This document shows positions 48,000 to 59,645 of a stretch of DNA of 64,000 nucleotides, piece after piece; the stretch's first letter is position 1, and each line of letters starts with the position of its first letter. The stretch is taken from sequence record ON528743. The stretch is one strand, 5' to 3'. Origin of the DNA: Shigella phage ESh33. The position numbers were made by a program, and so were the translations under genes. The notes below the pieces were generated by a model. That model was not told the origin of the DNA, made no database searches, and saw nothing but the letters and a program-made list of their open reading frames with translations.

Positions 48000-48000
48000 T

Positions 48001-48543
48001 ATGAAAGCTGTAATTGAAACAACTGATTTGTTCGGTGACCTGGTTATCGAAAAACGTGATAATGTATACGTTCTGACGCAGGAAGACGATAGTATTACTA
48101 TTCTTCCTATGGAACTGGCTGCGATTTTATCTTATGCTCCCTCAGGAGTTACCGGTGTAACTAATATTACAGGCGACCTCCAAGTTCGTTTTTATCGTGG
48201 CCTTTACGGCGGTAATATTGAAACTGAATTTATGTGTCTTTCTATCAACAATTGGGCAACATTCGTTGCCAAGGTGAAAGAATTCTTAGAATCTGAAACA
48301 GTCGAAACACCCGAAAAGGCTAAACTTCAATGGGCTAAAGATCGCGGTGCTAACATTATTAATCCAGTAGCTGCAAACTATACTACGACTTTGGATGTCA
48401 AGACTTCTTATGAAGATGGCGATGTCGTACTTGTTCGCCAAAATGATGATTCTCGAGCACATATTGTCACATTTACCAAAGACGAAGCTATTGCGCTAAA
48501 GACTTATCTTGATTCTGTCATTCTAACTATGATTTCAAAGTGA
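48001..48543 (+). CDS. hypothetical protein, 180 aa (paralog of next gene; internal two-module repeat)
   Basis: ATG 48001; modules NVYVLTQEDDSITILPMELAAI and VRQNDDSRAHIVTFTKDEAIALKTYL. Confidence 0.55.
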   Translation: MKAVIETTDLFGDLVIEKRDNVYVLTQEDDSITILPMELAAILSYAPSGVTGVTNITGDLQVRFYRGLYGGNIETEFMCLSINNWATFVAKVKEFLESETVETPEKAKLQWAKDRGANIINPVAANYTTTLDVKTSYEDGDVVLVRQNDDSRAHIVTFTKDEAIALKTYLDSVILTMISK

Positions 48544-48549
48544 GGAAAT

Positions 48550-49071
48550 ATGTTTATTTCAAGTGGAAGTGGTTTAATTCGTGTTGAATTTAAAAATGAC
48601 ATCTTTCTTATTCAAGGAGATGATATTATTAAAATGAGTTATGACGAAATCAAGAAAATTTGTCATGCTCTTGAAAGTCATGGAAAAGTGAACGCTGTTA
48701 TTGATATTGGCGATTTATGGGTGACACTTTATGAAGTATCCGAAGGATTTAACATTGAAGATGAAAATAACATTTTAGCTATTGATAAAAGAAGTGATTT
48801 GTTTGATGTATTAAAAGTTTATGAACAGTCAAATGGCGGAAGAAAAGCTGCATTGATTTATCAAAAACCGCATTCATGTGGAACTGCTTCAATCATTTCA
48901 AATATTGAAGATGAAGTTGATACTTATATGTGTGTTTTAAAAGCTGGTGGTGACCGTCATCCGGATTTTATTTCTATTCGTCAAAACAATGGAGAAATTT
49001 CATTATCAAAATCAGAAGCTGAAGCTATGATTAAGTATTTAACAACTGTTACGCCTTCAATGAAAGGATAA
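48550..49071 (+). CDS. hypothetical protein, 173 aa (paralog of previous gene)
   Basis: Shares IFLIQGDDIIKMSYDEIKKI and IRQNNGEISLSKSEAEAMIKYL modules with 48001-48543. Confidence 0.55.
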   Translation: MFISSGSGLIRVEFKNDIFLIQGDDIIKMSYDEIKKICHALESHGKVNAVIDIGDLWVTLYEVSEGFNIEDENNILAIDKRSDLFDVLKVYEQSNGGRKAALIYQKPHSCGTASIISNIEDEVDTYMCVLKAGGDRHPDFISIRQNNGEISLSKSEAEAMIKYLTTVTPSMKG

Positions 49072-49073
49072 TT

Positions 49074-49535
49074 ATGATTATTAATGAAAACGCTTGGCAC
49101 TATAAATTATTCAAATTGTTTAACGATGAATGGCAACGACCTAAGACACTATGCGCATATTTTTGGTCTATTGCCATTCCTACATTTTTCGTTTCTATTT
49201 TTGGATGTGCTATACTCGTAGGGCTAACAATTATTTGTGCAGAAAGCCTACAACGTTGGCTTATTTTCGGTAGTTTATGGACTCTTATTCCATCAGCATT
49301 TATACTTGCCATTTTGTTTGTTTTACTTATTATTGGTTCATTTGTTATTCCTGCACAACTGCATGAAAAATATAAAGATTATAAATGGAAAAAGGATTAT
49401 GCTTTACATGTAGAAAATATTGATAGGGCGTATAAGGGTTTACCTCCTATTCAACCCAAGAAATCTATTATCGTCGAATTTTTAAAAGCGCGTAAAGCTA
49501 AAGTATGTCCTGTTATTGAATATAAGGCTGAATGA
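49074..49535 (+). CDS. membrane protein, 153 aa
   Basis: Two long hydrophobic segments. Confidence 0.5.
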   Translation: MIINENAWHYKLFKLFNDEWQRPKTLCAYFWSIAIPTFFVSIFGCAILVGLTIICAESLQRWLIFGSLWTLIPSAFILAILFVLLIIGSFVIPAQLHEKYKDYKWKKDYALHVENIDRAYKGLPPIQPKKSIIVEFLKARKAKVCPVIEYKAE

Positions 49536-50545: not shown

Positions 50546-50547
50546 TA

Positions 50548-50571
50548 GGGAGCCTTCGGGCTCCCTTTTTT
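50548..50571 (+). terminator. intrinsic terminator (GGGAGCC-TTCG-GGCTCCC + TTTTTT)
   Basis: Perfect 7-bp GC stem, TTCG loop, 6 T. Confidence 0.75.
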
Positions 50572-52937: not shown

Positions 52938-53339
52938 ATGAAACAGTTGATAATTAAAAGATTGAATTTATTGATATGTTGTTTATGTATAGTAGTTGCA
53001 TATGGTTATTATGCTATTAATGATTATATGCATTATAAAGATTATGATGTTACTGTAGTTAATACCCTTACAGGAACTCAAGGAAAGGGGTCTAGTTTAT
53101 CGTTTATTGCTGTATATGAGCTGAATGATGGTTATAGATTTAGCGAATATATTTCACCAGAGATGTATTCGTCAATAGAAAAAGGTGATAATATTACTGT
53201 AAGTTTACGTCCTTTCGACGTAAAACAGACATTGTTTGATAATATCGTTTGGTTCTTTGGAATGGTATTAGTTCAATCTATATGCGGTGCTTATATAGTC
53301 TTTTCCATCATATTCTGTATATTTAGTAAAATTGAGTGA
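52938..53339 (+). CDS. membrane protein, 133 aa
   Basis: N- and C-terminal hydrophobic helices. Confidence 0.5.
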   Translation: MKQLIIKRLNLLICCLCIVVAYGYYAINDYMHYKDYDVTVVNTLTGTQGKGSSLSFIAVYELNDGYRFSEYISPEMYSSIEKGDNITVSLRPFDVKQTLFDNIVWFFGMVLVQSICGAYIVFSIIFCIFSKIE

Positions 53340-53346
53340 GGAAAAT

Positions 53347-54234
53347 ATGTCAGTAGTAATTAATAATGTTAATGCAGTAATTAAATCTTTAGTTAATAAA
53401 AAATTGAATGAATGGACTGTACTTCGTCGTGGAGAGCCAGATAAATTTTTTCATAGATTTAACCCAACTTTGGATTTGAATGTTATTGACAGAGATGTTC
53501 ATGCAGAAATTTTAGATAAGTTTAAAGTTGATATTGGATTTGGATTAGAAAAACATTTACAGCGAACAAACGGGTCTGGAATGGGTTTATCTAATCGCAT
53601 TATGAAAGCCCTTAATAAAATTGGAGCATTGTCTCGTATTAATGCAAGTGAAATTCTTCGCAATTATAATAAAGGATATGACCTTTATGGTCGACTAATG
53701 CCAAAATTATCATTCGATCAAATGATTGAGGATTTGTGGGAAAATCAACGACGATTATTAGCATTAGGCGCTCGATTAGCTAAAGGTCTAGATAAACAAA
53801 TGATTTTTAAGACCAATAATACAGAAGACCTTAAATGCTTTAAATTTAGTATTCGCGGCGATGATTATTACGTCAGAGCTCGCTCTACAGATTATGTTAA
53901 TATGGGGCATCATCTCTGTTTAGCTTTTGAAGTTTTAAAAGAAGCTGGAACATTAGAATATTCATCTGGTGCAAAATGCCCGATTGGTTCAAGTTGTATT
54001 TTAATTTATCGCCCGGATGAATCCAGTTCAACTAAATTGCCTACAAACCCTGTACCAGTTCGTAGTAACGAAAAACATTCTGAGCAAATTGATTATTTTA
54101 ATAAGCAAATTGAAGAGCTGAATATTTCTATTCAACAGTATGACGATGAAATTTTCAGACTATCTGGATTGAGTAGTAAAGCTAAATCTGAGCGTGAAAA
54201 ATTAATTAAAATTGTTGATTTACTTAAATCTTAA
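53347..54234 (+). CDS. paralog family member A (coiled-coil C-terminus), 295 aa
   Basis: ATG 53347 after GAGTGAGGAAAAT; motif RLLALGARLAKGLD; C-terminal coiled coil. Confidence 0.55.
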   Translation: MSVVINNVNAVIKSLVNKKLNEWTVLRRGEPDKFFHRFNPTLDLNVIDRDVHAEILDKFKVDIGFGLEKHLQRTNGSGMGLSNRIMKALNKIGALSRINASEILRNYNKGYDLYGRLMPKLSFDQMIEDLWENQRRLLALGARLAKGLDKQMIFKTNNTEDLKCFKFSIRGDDYYVRARSTDYVNMGHHLCLAFEVLKEAGTLEYSSGAKCPIGSSCILIYRPDESSSTKLPTNPVPVRSNEKHSEQIDYFNKQIEELNISIQQYDDEIFRLSGLSSKAKSEREKLIKIVDLLKS

Positions 54235-54242
54235 GGAACACT

Positions 54243-55247
54243 ATGAAAACTCGTTCTCAAATTGAAGATATGGTTCGTAATGCCAGCTATACCCGTAATG
54301 TTATGACATTTTTGTGCCAAAATAATTTAGACCCTGATAAAGTTAATCGTGATATTCACTTTAAGTATATGAATAGCAGTGAATGGTTACGTCATTTTAG
54401 TAAAGCGGGATATATTACACAAATGACTGCTCGTGAGCAGCTCACCGATTTCTGTAAAACTATTGATTATAAAAATCCTCTATTTGTTCAAGGCGTTGGT
54501 CAGAGTAAGGTTGATTTATCAACAGGATTTTTTAATCCAAATCATTATCGTATTGAATGGAGATTTATTGCTCTATTTCGTAAACAATTAAAGCAAATTT
54601 TGTCTACTGCTAGTCGATTAAAGGGCTCTGATATTAACTTAAAGAATCTGAAATTTGATGGTTATACTCTTCAGATGGAAGTAAGACCATTAAAAGAAAA
54701 TAATAGAACTGCACGAATTAGCTTTAAACCTAGTACTAAAAATTCTCTTTCAATTTGTGAATGTCTTAAATCACAGTTGACAGAAGCATTTAAGTATATG
54801 GATGTTGTTTCTGCTGTTCAGTCTAAGATTTCGCAGCATTTCGAACGATTTAAATTAGATACGACAACATATGAACTTGATATGATCGTTTCATTTAAAT
54901 ATGATTTTTTGAGAAAGGACGAAGTTACACAAGAGAAAAAACCTGAACCCCAAACTAATTACTCATCAAACGATCCTAAATTTTGGATGTATAGTTCAGG
55001 TAATAATGATGCATGGAAATTCAATAAAGTGAATTTTCTTCCTGTTGAAAATCCGAGTCTTAAACCTGTTGAAAAATGGCACGCGGATGCGATTGAGAAG
55101 TCTATCAAGGCAGTAGATGATGAACTCGTTAAAGCAACTAATGAAGTGTTAGAAGCTGAAAAGATGCTAGAAAAAGCTCAAGAAAAAGTAAAAAATCTCA
55201 CGAAGCAACGTTCTAAATTGAACAACGCACTAAATGCACTAAACTAG
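54243..55247 (+). CDS. paralog family member B, 334 aa
   Basis: Motif RIEWRFIALFRKQLKQILSTASRLKGSD; C-terminal coiled coil ending LNNALNALN. Confidence 0.55.
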   Translation: MKTRSQIEDMVRNASYTRNVMTFLCQNNLDPDKVNRDIHFKYMNSSEWLRHFSKAGYITQMTAREQLTDFCKTIDYKNPLFVQGVGQSKVDLSTGFFNPNHYRIEWRFIALFRKQLKQILSTASRLKGSDINLKNLKFDGYTLQMEVRPLKENNRTARISFKPSTKNSLSICECLKSQLTEAFKYMDVVSAVQSKISQHFERFKLDTTTYELDMIVSFKYDFLRKDEVTQEKKPEPQTNYSSNDPKFWMYSSGNNDAWKFNKVNFLPVENPSLKPVEKWHADAIEKSIKAVDDELVKATNEVLEAEKMLEKAQEKVKNLTKQRSKLNNALNALN

Positions 55248-55276
55248 TTTACTTCGCCACAAGGATGTGGTATAAT
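55247..55276 (+). promoter_or_regulatory. early promoter (GTTTAC N18 TATAAT)
   Basis: GTTTAC 55247-55252; TGTGG TATAAT 55271-55276. Confidence 0.55.
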
Positions 55277-55304
55277 GTTCTTACTTTCTACTGAGGAGAT
55301 TAAT

Positions 55305-56306
55305 ATGACTCGCAACGAATATATTAAATCGTTCAACAGCGTTATTGATGATAAAGTTAAACCTATGTCTAGTCAGAATAGTGTGATTTCTATTATCAAT
55401 CAATGGCTCAATAATACTGATGCAAGTATTGTTTCTTCCGGCAAATTTATTCATGAAGTTCGTGAAATTTCTAGTCGTACAGATAAAGATGACATTAAGA
55501 AAACCTTTAAAGGGTCTCGTCTTCTTTCATACTTAGTCAACAGAGATATTCTTAGTAAATTTGGGAAAGAAATTAAACGAACTAAAGATGTAGTAGGATA
55601 TAATTGGTTCGGTGATGTTAATTCTTATCATCTTAATAATAAAGAATACCCTGAGAATATTTTTACTCGTCGTTGGATTAGTAATTTCAGACTTTTCAAA
55701 GGACAAATTCTAAAATCAGCTTCTAAATTATGTTATGGCGATTATCGTCAAATTCATCCTTTGGCTTCTGATATGATTATCGTAAAAGAATATGAGCTTG
55801 ATGAAAATAAAGTAGCTATTTTTGTGAATTATGGATTTTTTACACCAAACGCTAACCAAAAGAATATTAATAAATTTTTCTCAATTGCTAGCACTATAAC
55901 TTATCAATTAGAGGCGGTTTTGGGCTGTATGGAAACTGTAAAAAGTATTCATACATATCCTTTCAAAAATATGTGTGGTTGGGAAGGATATAAAATTATA
56001 ATTAGCCTTCGTGAAGTAAAGTGTGCGTGCTCATCGACTGATAAAGAAATTTACCAACAAAAATGTGATGAAATTGTGAATACTCCTAAAGAAGAAACTA
56101 CCCTTGAAGAACTAATGGAATGTCTTGACGATTCACCTGAACCGATAGAAATTCGTCCAGAAGTTATTGCACTAGAAAAAGCTTATAAAGAAGCTCTAGA
56201 AATTTCTAATAAAGCACAGAAAGAATATGAGAAGGCTAAAAGGATTTGGGAAGAATCTGTTAATCGCCTGGATCGTCTTGAACAAGCTTTACAGTTAATT
56301 AAGTAA
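55305..56306 (+). CDS. paralog family member C, 333 aa
   Basis: ATG 55305 after GAGGAG (the track ATG at 55275 lies inside the -10 box); motif RRWISNFRLFKGQILKSASKLCYGDY; coiled-coil C-terminus. Confidence 0.55.
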   Translation: MTRNEYIKSFNSVIDDKVKPMSSQNSVISIINQWLNNTDASIVSSGKFIHEVREISSRTDKDDIKKTFKGSRLLSYLVNRDILSKFGKEIKRTKDVVGYNWFGDVNSYHLNNKEYPENIFTRRWISNFRLFKGQILKSASKLCYGDYRQIHPLASDMIIVKEYELDENKVAIFVNYGFFTPNANQKNINKFFSIASTITYQLEAVLGCMETVKSIHTYPFKNMCGWEGYKIIISLREVKCACSSTDKEIYQQKCDEIVNTPKEETTLEELMECLDDSPEPIEIRPEVIALEKAYKEALEISNKAQKEYEKAKRIWEESVNRLDRLEQALQLIK

Positions 56307-56358
56307 TTTAAAGCCAAGGATGGCTCGGAGTATAAACCATTAACCAAGTGAGAAGAAT

Positions 56359-57288
56359 ATGAAAACTCGTAAACATTATATTGATTATTTTGACAGTCTT
56401 ATTACTAAACACCGTAATTATCAGATCGGGCACAGAACAGTAATCAATAATATTCTTCGTGATTTCCTTCAATATGTTGGTCAGGAAAATCATATCTGTA
56501 AAGATACTCAAAACGCTTATTCTCATTCGTTAGGCAATTTGCTTGAATGGTTTAAACGTTCTCGTATGTTATCTTCTACTGTAGCTCATGAGAACATTAA
56601 AAACTTTATGAAGCCGAGCTTCATTAAATCTGAGACATCTATAACCGATTTGGTTGAATTTACTATTGTTAATGATGTTAAAAAGACTCATTTGGCTGAT
56701 TGGTTTTCTACCATTCCTGAAACTAATTTTGCTGATAAATTTGCTTGTCAATTCAATGACCAAGTGAATATGCTTTTTAAGCATGCTCGCAAACTATTTA
56801 CCGCGGGCGATGACCGTACAAATACAGTTCATGTTAAGGACTGGGTTATTGCTGATGAAGTAACACATAAGCCAGGTGGTTCATCAGTATTAATTAATAT
56901 CCAGGTTCCTTATTATTACTCACGTAATCTTGGCACCATGACAGCTAAAGAAATTAATAAGCACAACAAAACTATTCGTTCGTTATCTTATAAACTCCGC
57001 ATGATGTTAAAAATCATGGACGTAGTAGAAATGTATGACGAAACCGAAGATAATGGTTCAATGTTATACAGTTCACGCATTTTAATTAAACTGAAGAACC
57101 CTAATACATATAAGACAGTTGTAAAAGAGCCTAAAGTAGAAAAGATTGATAACTTGAGCGAAGAACGTGAATACCTCAAATCTCGACTAGTTGAAGTTGA
57201 AGCTCAGATTGCCGAACACACTAAATTGTTAAAAGCTCTTAATGCAAAAGCAAATGGTTTACGTAATGCTATTGAGGTATTGAAATGA
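56359..57288 (+). CDS. paralog family member D, 309 aa
   Basis: Motif NMLFKHARKLFTAGDD; coiled-coil C-terminus ending LRNAIEVLK. Confidence 0.55.
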   Translation: MKTRKHYIDYFDSLITKHRNYQIGHRTVINNILRDFLQYVGQENHICKDTQNAYSHSLGNLLEWFKRSRMLSSTVAHENIKNFMKPSFIKSETSITDLVEFTIVNDVKKTHLADWFSTIPETNFADKFACQFNDQVNMLFKHARKLFTAGDDRTNTVHVKDWVIADEVTHKPGGSSVLINIQVPYYYSRNLGTMTAKEINKHNKTIRSLSYKLRMMLKIMDVVEMYDETEDNGSMLYSSRILIKLKNPNTYKTVVKEPKVEKIDNLSEEREYLKSRLVEVEAQIAEHTKLLKALNAKANGLRNAIEVLK

Positions 57289-57674
57289 AAAAGCGTCTAT
57301 TAGAAGATATTGCAGCTTCAAGTAATTCCAGTCTAATTAAAATTATTATGGCTGGTGAAGAAGACGATCTGGAAATGCGCGGAAAGATTCATGGTTGTGA
57401 TGATTTAGATTTTAAACCTCCAGCCTGGGATGCTATTATGGTTATGGTTGAACGTCGCGAAAGGGCTTCTAAAAACGTTCCTAATTGTCCTGAATGCGGT
57501 ACTGAACAAGTTCAATTGATTAACTGGCGTAAACCGGAACTTGAATATAAATGCCGTCATTGCAAACATAAATTTAGTAAGCATGCTCCGGAAATGGTTA
57601 AATTACCTGACTCTACTGAGTTCTTTAAAGAACTTGCGAGTGTTCAACCAATGCCTAATAATATTTTGGATTAA
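57285..57674 (+). CDS. zinc-ribbon protein, 129 aa
   Basis: [31 protein letters not shown] (CPxCG...YxCxxCxxxFS) resembles IS1/IS1595-type N-terminal zinc ribbons; no transposase catalytic domain. Confidence 0.5.
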
Positions 57675-57919: not shown

Positions 57920-58183
57920 ATGTTTAAAGTATATGGTTATGATAGCAACATCCATAAATGTGTGTATTGCGATAATGCAAAACGTCTCTTGACTGTGAAG
58001 AAACAGCCATTTGAATTTATCAACATTATGCCGGAAAAAGGTGTTTTTGATGATGAGAAAATCGCTGAGCTTCTGACGAAACTAGGTCGTGATACTCAAA
58101 TTGGTTTGACAATGCCACAAGTATTTGCTCCTGATGGAAGTCATATTGGTGGATTTGACCAATTGCGGGAATACTTTAAATGA
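57920..58183 (+). CDS. nrdC: glutaredoxin/thioredoxin NrdC
   Basis: 87 aa; MFKVYGYDSNIHKCVYCDNAKRLL with CVYC active site; matches T4 NrdC. Confidence 0.92.
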   Translation: MFKVYGYDSNIHKCVYCDNAKRLLTVKKQPFEFINIMPEKGVFDDEKIAELLTKLGRDTQIGLTMPQVFAPDGSHIGGFDQLREYFK

Positions 58184-58395
58184 TGCTCGAAGGAACTGAT
58201 TATATCCATGACTACCGCGGAAGCGCGGTATATGTAGGTGATGAGGTTACAGTTTATTACGGGTATGGAACTTTGATGACAGCAAAGGTTATTCAAATTA
58301 AAAATAATCGTGCTAAACTCGAAGTTTATTATTCTAACGGTGAAAAGTCTATTTCTAAATGGAAATATGGCGATTGCATGGTCAAACTGGGGTAA
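58180..58395 (+). CDS. hypothetical protein, 71 aa
   Basis: ATGA overlap with nrdC. Confidence 0.45.
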   Translation: MMLEGTDYIHDYRGSAVYVGDEVTVYYGYGTLMTAKVIQIKNNRAKLEVYYSNGEKSISKWKYGDCMVKLG

Positions 58396-58397
58396 AT

Positions 58398-58568
58398 ATG
58401 ATTTACGATATTAGTGTATCAAGAACTCCGTCAATGGTTACTATTCCAGCCGAAGAATTAGATCGTCTTCAGAAAATTGAAGAGCTTCTTTGGGAAATTG
58501 AATCTGATTTGCCATCAGGACTAGAATCTTGGATTGATTATGAAGAACTTAATAAATTGCGAAATTAA
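58398..58568 (+). CDS. small hypothetical protein, 56 aa
   Basis: ATG 58398 after GGGGTAAAT. Confidence 0.4.
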   Translation: MIYDISVSRTPSMVTIPAEELDRLQKIEELLWEIESDLPSGLESWIDYEELNKLRN

Positions 58569-58982: not shown

Positions 58983-59022
58983 GAACCGACGATAAATGAC
59001 TTAATTGATATGGAGATGGGGT

Positions 59023-59469
59023 ATGATTGCAGTAGATAAGTGGTTTAGAATTAATCGTGCTGATAAAGGGCTGTGTAATTACTGGCCGGAACTTAGTGCA
59101 GGTACTGTCTTTAAAGTTCGTGAACTTGCAAAAGAATGCGAAGATGATATAGAACCTGATACTGGAATTATTGAAATTGAACTTTCTGATGGAAAGATTA
59201 TTAACATCTACGATAAGCCAATTACGTATTGGTGCTTGTGGAATACTGAATCCGCAGAAAATGGCGAAATTGAAGAAGTTGTAGAACGAATTGATCAAGT
59301 TCTTCATAAACCTAAAGCTGGATTTCAGGGTGAACGCATTTCATATGCATTATCTAAATCGGCGTTGAAAAAAGATATTGATGATTACGAAGGAAATTTA
59401 ATGCAAGCCGCGGCAGAATATATTGAATGGCTTGAAACTCAAATTTCTTTTTCTGACCGAGCGTTTTAA
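59023..59469 (+). CDS. hypothetical protein, 148 aa
   Basis: ATG 59023 after GGAGATGGGGT (track start is upstream TTG). Confidence 0.45.
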   Translation: MIAVDKWFRINRADKGLCNYWPELSAGTVFKVRELAKECEDDIEPDTGIIEIELSDGKIINIYDKPITYWCLWNTESAENGEIEEVVERIDQVLHKPKAGFQGERISYALSKSALKKDIDDYEGNLMQAAAEYIEWLETQISFSDRAF

Positions 59470-59645
59470 TGAAAACCGAATTAATTTATACTGAAAAGTT
59501 AAATGGTGGTAAGGTTTGGAAACTTTTTATTAAAGGAAGTCCTACTGACCCTAATATGACCACTTGTATAGGAACTTATTCTCGTCCTACTAAAAAGATG
59601 ATTCGACAATATAAGCGATTGCATCGAATGTTTTACAATACTTGA
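59469..59645 (+). CDS. small basic protein, 58 aa
   Basis: TAATG overlap; MKTELIYTEKLNGGKVWKLFIKG...; below track cutoff. Confidence 0.4.
   Translation: MKTELIYTEKLNGGKVWKLFIKGSPTDPNMTTCIGTYSRPTKKMIRQYKRLHRMFYNT

Follow-up and report, generated by a model that had tools for sequence, protein, structure and literature searches.

Gene content and early promoter of the array

The 64,000-nucleotide stretch of Shigella phage ESh33 analyzed here (sequence record ON528743; hereafter the window) is Tequatrovirus sequence and covers the nrdC-mobD early region, read along the direction of early transcription. The subject of this study is an array of four consecutive open reading frames (ORFs A to D) within this region, which are named nrdC.6, nrdC.5, nrdC.4, and nrdC.3 in annotated relatives (phage KMB42 and T4) and stand there in the same order (Table 1). 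An earlier reading of the window from its letters alone, referred to below as the original prediction, had described four tandem ORFs for proteins of 295 to 334 amino acids (aa), and their positions and lengths hold; all four lie on the plus strand. Over the 4.2-kb stretch containing the array, identity is 98.5% to Escherichia phage PinkRuby and 90-95% to several hundred Tequatrovirus genomes. Its flanks are arranged as in T4, with nrdC.11, nrdC.10, nrdC.9, nrdC.8, and nrdC.7 upstream and nrdC.2, nrdC.1, nrdC (thioredoxin), 49.2, 49.1, pin, and gene 49 downstream.

All four genes belong to catalogued families. ORF B matches Pfam DUF7235 (PF23882) across the entire model (positions 1-307 of 307; expect value [E] 1.1e-116; 390 bits, cutoff 30) as well as phrog_2351 (E 1e-164), and T4 NrdC.5 aligns by tblastn at 54243-55217, between nrdC.6 and nrdC.4, with 90% identity over 331 residues. 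ORF A matches phrog_2257 (E 1e-152), and PF26899 is assigned to 105 of its 105 homologs. A single family, phrog_1435, matches both C (E 8e-165) and D (E 7e-115), with PF26897 on every homolog listed. The original prediction had recognized no characterized family and had called the function unknown; the families are in fact catalogued in Pfam and PHROG, and a function has been published for nrdC.5 (see below). The start of ORF A was placed at the ATG at 53347, where T4 NrdC.6 aligns; an in-frame TTG lies upstream at 53332 and is unused in T4. For ORF C, the ATG at 55305 follows a GAGGAG Shine-Dalgarno sequence and coincides with the start of the T4 NrdC.4 alignment, while the mechanically assigned ATG at 55275 falls within the TATAAT -10 box of the promoter described below.

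Table 1. Positions of the array genes, their parts, and the internal promoter in the window
Feature	Position	Strand	Description
ORF A, NrdC.6 ortholog	53347-54234	+	295 aa; 97% aa identity to T4
ORF A, motif 1	53587-53667		
ORF A, motif 2	53749-53793		RRLLALGARLAKGLD
ORF A, C-terminal helical hairpin/coiled coil	54070-54231		
ORF B, NrdC.5 ortholog	54243-55247	+	334 aa; 90% identity to T4
ORF B, motif 1	54375-54461		
ORF B, motif 2	54591-54632		
ORF B, disordered linker			Residues ~221-274
ORF B, coiled coil	55065-55244		
T4-type early (sigma-70) promoter	55248-55276	+	TTTACT-17-TATAAT, extended -10 TG; before C and D
ORF C, NrdC.4 ortholog	55305-56306	+	333 aa; 89% identity to T4
ORF C, motif 1	55497-55571		
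ORF C, motif 2	55701-55742		
ORF C, acidic linker			
ORF C, C-terminal helix	56154-56303		
ORF D, NrdC.3 ortholog	56359-57288	+	309 aa; 60% identity to T4; multi-allelic
ORF D, motif 1	56539-56613		
ORF D, motif 2	56764-56811		
ORF D, coiled coil	57145-57285		

An early promoter had also been predicted inside the array. The sequence reads GTTTACT-N17-TGGTATAAT, with GTTTAC as the -35 element and an extended -10 element, TGnTATAAT. T4, KMB42, and the Dhakavirus KIT01 carry the two hexamers unchanged, although KIT01 has diverged in the spacer and flanks. A generic promoter scan reported 43 sites, compared with 35 ± 6.5 in shuffled sequence; because the scan finds about as many sites in shuffled sequence, the evidence for this promoter is its conservation and not the scan. 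The comparative evidence is good and argues for a functional early promoter ahead of nrdC.4 that would drive C and D.

Evidence that the four proteins are paralogs

All four proteins are paralogs of one family, as had been predicted. Their relatedness is significant at the level of profiles, while plain BLASTP proved too insensitive for A and B: C-D was the sole significant pair (E 1.2e-6; 24% over 225 aa). With the chimeric protein P0162 (described below) taken out of the D alignment, the hhalign profile comparison of C and D gave an E value of 7e-15. An initial hhalign match between B and D (97% probability, out of register) was rejected as spurious, having been caused by the presence of that chimera in the D alignment. 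Homologs of A, of B, and of C and D together were collected as family alignments for the profile-profile comparisons. B matched the merged C+D profile with an E value of 2.2e-8 (probability, 95%), and the 151 in-register columns span both conserved motifs and the 'YMDVV / CMETV' helix.

The profile of A aligned with the others in a constant register, and its scores were not significant (E of 0.017 against C+D, 0.2 against B, and 0.005 against B+C+D). The B+C+D profile was then searched with HMMER against 1.84 billion representative proteins (cutoff, E <= 1e-3) and returned 20 proteins, including six new remote full-length members (P0263, P0269, P0270, and P0273 to P0275). These six and a 324-aa protein of Jiaodavirus JD18, which the B+C+D hidden Markov model (HMM) matched at an E value of 1.4e-8, were added to form an extended B+C+D profile; none of the seven was picked using A. 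The A family matched the extended profile from motif 1 to motif 2 (E 2.3e-6; probability, 89%; ~72 aligned columns), compared with an E value of 0.02 for a reversed-A control.

Further proteins bridge A and the rest of the family. In a search of 127 ORFs, the single family member of Karamvirus KMB19, a 332-aa protein, was matched at an E value of 2e-6 by the A HMM and at 2.7e-8 by the extended B+C+D HMM; in a search of 31 ORFs, gp94 of Yersinia phage fHe-Yen9-01 was matched at 7e-5 by the A HMM and at 5e-4 by the D HMM. Both gp94 alignments sit in the motif-2/strand region, outside the coiled coil. Likewise, a Foldseek search of BFVD with the model of A retrieved uncharacterized proteins of 304 to 335 aa from other T4-like genera (E 1e-6 to 9e-4; template modeling [TM] scores, 0.36-0.47), namely, from Pectobacterium phage PM2, Enterobacter phage IME523, Acinetobacter phages Acj9 and Acj61, Klebsiella phage Mineola, and Yersinia phage fHe-Yen9-01. 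The matches in Acj61 (304 aa) and fHe-Yen9-01 (313 aa) agree in phage and length with loci flagged by the family HMMs. We accept the homology of A because of its E value against the extended profile, the bridging proteins, the structure-search matches, and the same order of elements. A diverged earliest and is the most divergent of the paralogs, and its link to the family is weaker than the other links.

If the four proteins were instead nonhomologous and had acquired their common length, motif, and coiled coil by convergence or chance, nonsignificant BLASTP scores for every pair except C-D, an E value of 0.2 between the A and B profiles, and the division of the proteins among three separate Pfam and three separate PHROG families would all be expected. 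This explanation is very improbable and already largely refuted by the profile-profile E values for B and for A, the latter with its reversed control; by alignments that stay in register over both motifs; by bridging proteins that are matched from both sides outside the coiled coil; and by the shared order of secondary-structure elements, with the A model retrieving members from other genera. NrdC.6, NrdC.5, and NrdC.3/4, which databases hold as three unrelated families of unknown function, are here linked into one superfamily, and their paralogy appears to be unrecorded. DUF7235, PF26897, PF26899, and the three PHROGs would accordingly merge into a single superfamily restricted to the Straboviridae.

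Protein architecture and structure models

The proteins share a common predicted plan, comprising a basic N-terminal globular domain, a variable and partly disordered linker, and a C-terminal amphipathic heptad helix of 45 to 60 residues. In the N-terminal domain, a variable segment of 45 to 85 residues precedes a conserved core with two helical motifs. Examples of motif 1 from an hmmalign alignment of 18 representatives are IMKALNKIGALSRINASEILRNY, WLRHFSKAGYITQMTAREQLTDFCK, KKTFKGSRLLSYLVNRDILSKFGK, and LLEWFKRSRMLSSTVAHENIKNFMK. Motif 2 occurs at equivalent positions as RRLLALGARLAKGLD in A, KQILSTASRLKGSD in B, GQILKSASKLCYGD in C, and VNMLFKHARKLFTAGD in D; a degenerate motif common to all four had been proposed from the sequence, and the four strings named were indeed found at equivalent positions. 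In the models of A and B, motif 2 is followed by a helix, two strands, a helix, two further strands, the linker, and the long C-terminal helix. The alignment of the 18 representatives also displays motif 2 and the strand-helix-strand core; the linker varies in length and composition, and the C-terminal helix ends with hydrophobic-x-x-L-K/N in most members.

All four N-terminal domains are basic, with isoelectric points (pI) of 9.2 to 9.6 and net charges of +7.5 to +12, and the linker of C is strongly acidic. A DNA-mimic anti-restriction protein of the Ocr/ArdA type was rejected as a model for the family, since this type needs a strongly acidic surface.

AlphaFold modeled A with a predicted local distance difference test score (pLDDT) of 78 and a predicted TM score of 0.66, placing C-terminal helices at residues 247-276 and 282-299. 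The model of B, built from a shallow alignment, reached a pLDDT of 47 overall; its C terminus is a single helix (residues 275-333) with a pLDDT of about 80-88. The original prediction had also given each protein a C-terminal coiled coil. A crude heptad score peaks at the C terminus in all four; the peak lies above 95% of the maxima from shuffled sequences for A, B, and D, but not for C. The only, and weak, matches of the C-terminal region among PDB sequences are coiled-coil proteins.

No solved structure or curated family accounts for the fold. Searches with PADLOC defense models and NCBIfam housekeeping models yielded only subthreshold coiled-coil-type or spurious matches, and homology to a housekeeping family, which would have spoken against the original prediction, was not found as a significant match in NCBIfam. 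Residues 30-86 of ORF D gave subthreshold matches to the SAM-like N-terminal domain of tyrosine recombinases (E of 0.12 in Pfam; 0.003 and 0.013 in NCBIfam). This lead was set aside, as the matches are far under the curated cutoffs and absent from a profile search of PDB sequences. Foldseek matches of the B model (TM score to query, <= 0.27) were treated as uninformative given the pLDDT of 47. Many of them were to tail-completion, tail-terminator, and neck proteins (probability up to 1.0; TM score to target up to 0.5), and these are probably meaningless; they are intriguing in that related sirtuin defenses sense phage structural proteins.

Distribution and copy number

Judged from the databases searched, the family exists only in T4-like phages (Straboviridae), because no more than the above 20 of 1.84 billion representative proteins reach the E-value cutoff. 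It is located between nrdC.10 and nrdC in every genus examined, barring one weak candidate, Yersinia phage gp111, which lies upstream of nrdC.10. Copy number differs among genera. Tequatrovirus (the window and T4) has four members in the order A-B-C-D; Mosigvirus (EP32a) has three, which are A-, B-, and D-like; and Dhakavirus (KIT01) also has three, which are A-, B-, and C-like. One clear member each was found in Karamvirus, Jiaodavirus, and Moonvirus. Tegunavirus and Acinetobacter phage Acj61 each yielded one clear member and, in addition, a second candidate that is weaker. A search of IMG/VR for loci related to the remote members P0273 and P0275 found none. The array is a lineage-specific tandem expansion of one family.

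Divergence, selection, and recombination

Amino acid identity to T4 falls from A to D (Table 1), and the ratio of nonsynonymous to synonymous substitution rates (dN/dS) relative to T4 is 0.07 for A, 0.15 for B, 0.21 for C, and 0.27 for D. The conserved flanking genes (NrdC.11, NrdC.10, NrdC.9, NrdC.8, NrdC.1, NrdC, gp49.2, and gp49) are 97-100% identical to their T4 counterparts with dN/dS of 0.00-0.06. The immediate neighbors are also elevated (NrdC.7, 92% identity and dN/dS of 0.21; NrdC.2, 81% and 0.25). Array genes thus evolve 3 to 5 times faster nonsynonymously than their conserved neighbors and are still under purifying selection. For ORF D, dN is 0.32 and dS is 1.19; dS is likewise high in nrdC.2 (0.61), compared with 0.1-0.4 in the other genes of the block. 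Because their dS is so much higher, the data point to replacement of the D and nrdC.2 alleles by recombination. In the window, nrdC.2 (57285-57674) encodes 129 aa versus 104 aa in T4, with a zinc-ribbon-like motif (CPECG...CRHCKHKF), and NrdC.2 and nrdC.3 would form one recombinationally replaced block.

Across about 500 Tequatrovirus genomes, identity is mostly 95-99% for A, 80-95% for B, and mostly 80-90% for C, while D falls into allele classes near 95%, 75%, and 60% identity, with T4, T2, and T6 in the 60% class. NrdC.10, for comparison, is at least 99% identical in 482 GenBank phage records. The rapid divergence that had been predicted for the family is therefore seen in B, C, and especially D, but not in A. 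Within the genus, variability peaks in the N-terminal segment and linker of A and B and in the linker of D; it is fairly even in C.

The array is also plastic in its structure. Salmonella phage Manna encodes a 345-aa in-frame A/C hybrid (Manna_094; L013 3715-4752), in which residues 1 to ~266 of NrdC.6 are joined to residues 251-333 of NrdC.4 at a common 'DEI', with nrdC.5 deleted. This gene shows that paralogs recombine into new full-length proteins. P0162, a metagenome/Logan protein found on three contigs (the longest of about 167 kb), is a fusion of NrdC.5 residues 145-266 to NrdC.3 residues 129-309. In phage ACG-C40 (L012 4305-4716), an out-of-frame deletion runs from NrdC.5 residue 68 to NrdC.3 residue 238, and NrdC.6 alone is intact.

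Two further rearrangements were observed. The 378-aa NrdC.6 of Shigella phage Sf25 (P0001) contains an internal tandem duplication of ~83 residues that takes in the core's second half together with the linker and the first part of the coiled coil. A 173-aa protein (P0277) on an 803-bp ENA metagenome contig (L011) is identical over its last ~55 residues to the coiled coil of the window's NrdC.5 and unrelated to it over the first 115. A domain swap may account for this protein, as may a chimeric assembly.

Probable function of the array in counterdefense

The original prediction had guessed at host takeover or counterdefense, and for counterdefense the literature directly supports one member. 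A T4 clone that had evolved compensatory deletions fails on Escherichia coli ECOR17, and deletion of dsr1 restores infection (Srikant, Guegler & Laub, eLife 2022, PMC9391042). Cloned dsr1 protects MG1655 from the T4 deletion mutant, and expression of T4 nrdC.5 alone restores plating (PMC9391042). Dsr1 carries a SIR2 domain and is thought to deplete NAD+ (PMC9391042); according to a 2026 preprint, its TPR sensor domain recognizes phage major capsid proteins. ORF B is orthologous to T4 NrdC.5, occupies the same position, belongs to the same family, and is likewise early and nonessential. It differs from the T4 allele, from which the anti-Dsr1 activity is known, at about 10% of residues. We consider ORF B very probably anti-Dsr1. 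Through the superfamily link, a proven anti-Dsr1 protein therefore has three tandem paralogs, whereas PMC9391042 handles nrdC.5 as a single uncharacterized gene and leaves paralogs unmentioned. The orthologs of A, C, and D in T4 (NrdC.6, NrdC.4, and NrdC.3) are known as 'conserved hypothetical proteins'.

The surrounding cluster contains further genes with proven counterdefense roles. NrdC.1 inhibits Septu (bioRxiv 10.1101/2025.11.20.689424), gp49.2 inhibits OLD (PMC13096335), and the T4 fragment nrdC.1-6 can be deleted without loss of viability (PMC9825161). Like the array, NrdC.1, gp49.2, and the Lon inhibitor Pin, all present in the window, belong to this early dispensable cluster, and each acts on one host system. 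In contrast to the array proteins, these are small single-copy proteins (80-160 aa) of unrelated sequence, and they lack the architecture of motif core and coiled coil.

Taken together, the array is probably a diversifying battery of dispensable early counterdefense proteins, a role shown for the T4 ortholog of B and proposed by extension for A, C, and D. Duplicated and made early, the proteins would act as inhibitors of host defense. Duplication, divergence, and recombination between paralogs would create new specificities, and A, C, and D would then target other defense systems or other Dsr1 variants; the different specificities assumed by the original prediction thus remain, for these three, an inference. 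As a mechanism, we tentatively suggest direct binding: the C-terminal helix would oligomerize each protein, and the variable N-terminal part would bind and block one host defense protein, which for B would be Dsr1 itself.

Several observations weigh against this interpretation. Only one of the four proteins has an experimentally established function (NrdC.5, in the form of its T4 allele, by plaque assays), and a literature search found neither a mechanism for NrdC.5 nor a direct NrdC.5-Dsr1 interaction. Informative PDB matches for the fold were lacking, so the proposed mechanism is without structural precedent; the model of B is poor; and the heptad score of C fails to exceed the shuffle threshold. 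Positive selection is undemonstrated, as dN/dS is below 0.3 in all four genes, and A is well conserved in the genus, unlike a typical arms-race gene. Finally, the strongly basic N-terminal domains would also suit nucleic acid binding.

This last property leads to the main rival explanation, in which basic domains dimerized by the coiled coil bind DNA, RNA, or a housekeeping machine (nucleoid, RNA polymerase, or protease) as host-takeover factors, with an indirect effect on Dsr1, for example, by masking or delaying its trigger. Early expression from a sigma-70-type promoter, the charge of the N-terminal domains, and the SAM-like DNA-binding domain matches of D (E 0.003-0.12) are consistent with it, as is the lack of a reported direct interaction in the literature searched. 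However, the recombinase-domain match is far under every curated cutoff and was not reproduced against PDB sequences, the whole block is dispensable on laboratory hosts, and nrdC.5 expressed on its own specifically rescues infection of cells that carry Dsr1. The adjacent cluster genes are specific defense inhibitors, and raised dN/dS and multi-allelism are more in keeping with a host target that varies than with a conserved housekeeping one. We regard nucleic acid binding or takeover as unlikely.

A second possibility is that only NrdC.5 serves in counterdefense, with A, C, and D having unrelated, redundant, or decaying functions and the array being the product of historical duplication. Indeed, a literature search found nothing published on the function of nrdC.3, nrdC.4, or nrdC.6, for which no phenotype is known, and members are lost in nature: in ACG-C40, C is absent altogether, along with most of B and of D; Manna lacks B; and roughly 35 of the approximately 500 Tequatrovirus records are without C. 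Such a restriction to NrdC.5 nevertheless seems quite improbable, as all four reading frames are intact with the low dN/dS values given above, the large majority of the approximately 500 Tequatrovirus genomes contain them, related genera retain three members in differing combinations, and a dedicated conserved promoter stands ahead of C.

Returning to the counterdefense battery, a more detailed version of it is speculative and, on balance, somewhat doubtful. NrdC.3 to NrdC.6 might constitute one modular inhibitor scaffold, in which the coiled coil and core are constant and the fast-evolving N-terminal segment and linker set specificity. Each paralog and each NrdC.3 allele class would disarm a different defense sensor, new specificities would arise via tandem duplication and in-frame recombination (as in Manna_094 and P0162), and the single-copy gene of Karamvirus, Jiaodavirus, and Moonvirus would represent an ancestral generalist.

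Comparison with known counterdefense systems and significance

A parallel to the proposed mechanism is DSAD1 of SPbeta-like Bacillus phages, which is described in the literature as counteracting or inhibiting DSR2 (e.g., PMC10981675). As described there, a phage protein neutralizes a defense-associated sirtuin, which is the mechanism proposed for NrdC.5 against Dsr1. The target differs, being DSR2. Three family profiles, searched against all PDB chain sequences, gave no significant match, and no protein of the DSR2 system was among the matches listed, with the presence of DSAD1 chains in that set unconfirmed. To our knowledge, DSAD1 does not form a tandem paralog family.

The T4 internal proteins IPI, IPII, and IPIII offer another comparison, as their locus also encodes variable, dispensable proteins of T4-like phages with host range and antidefense roles. 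These proteins travel in the phage head and are injected along with the DNA. Unlike the array proteins, they are not coiled-coil proteins made from early transcripts, and homology between the two groups was not seen. IPIII is needed on ECOR17 (PMC9391042), and IPI is reported to inhibit type IV restriction (bioRxiv 10.1101/2025.11.20.689424).

Although no large phage is better studied than T4, about half of its early genes are still without a function. The present analysis makes nrdC.3, nrdC.4, and nrdC.6 concrete candidates for new defense inhibitors and suggests a shared scaffold for the diversification of such inhibitors. Variation in copy number and alleles of the block, above all in nrdC.3, could help explain host range differences among therapeutic T4-like phages. 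The genes have long been known as T4 ORFs, and it is well established that early regions of phages can hold tandem, diversifying antidefense genes; the finding is no new kind of biology. What seems to be unrecorded is the superfamily itself, the three tandem paralogs of an anti-Dsr1 protein, the graded and allele-rich divergence, and the natural hybrid genes.

Other differences from T4 around the array

Differences from T4 were also observed outside the array. In the slot of T4 gp49.3, between nrdC and 49.2, the window carries two unrelated small ORFs (71 aa, 58180-58395; 69 aa, 58359-58568), and tblastn with T4 gp49.3 found no match within the window; this position is another variable slot in the antidefense cluster. 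T4 Pin is matched by two separate alignments, one of residues 1-146 (59023-59460) and one of residues 144-161 (59589-59642), which are divided between a 154-aa ORF and a 58-aa ORF (59005-59645), possibly reflecting an insertion or rearrangement of about 125 nucleotides near the 3' end of pin.

At the other end of the region, the stretch upstream of nrdC.11 (~48000-49535) differs from T4. No match to the T4 homing endonuclease gene mobD was found in the window, and MobD.1 (48004-48540) is 47% identical. Between nrdC.11 and nrdC.10, at 50547-50566, a perfect 8-bp GC-rich hairpin (AGGGAGCC-TTCG-GGCTCCCT) is followed by a T-run, and the terminator scan scored it on both strands.

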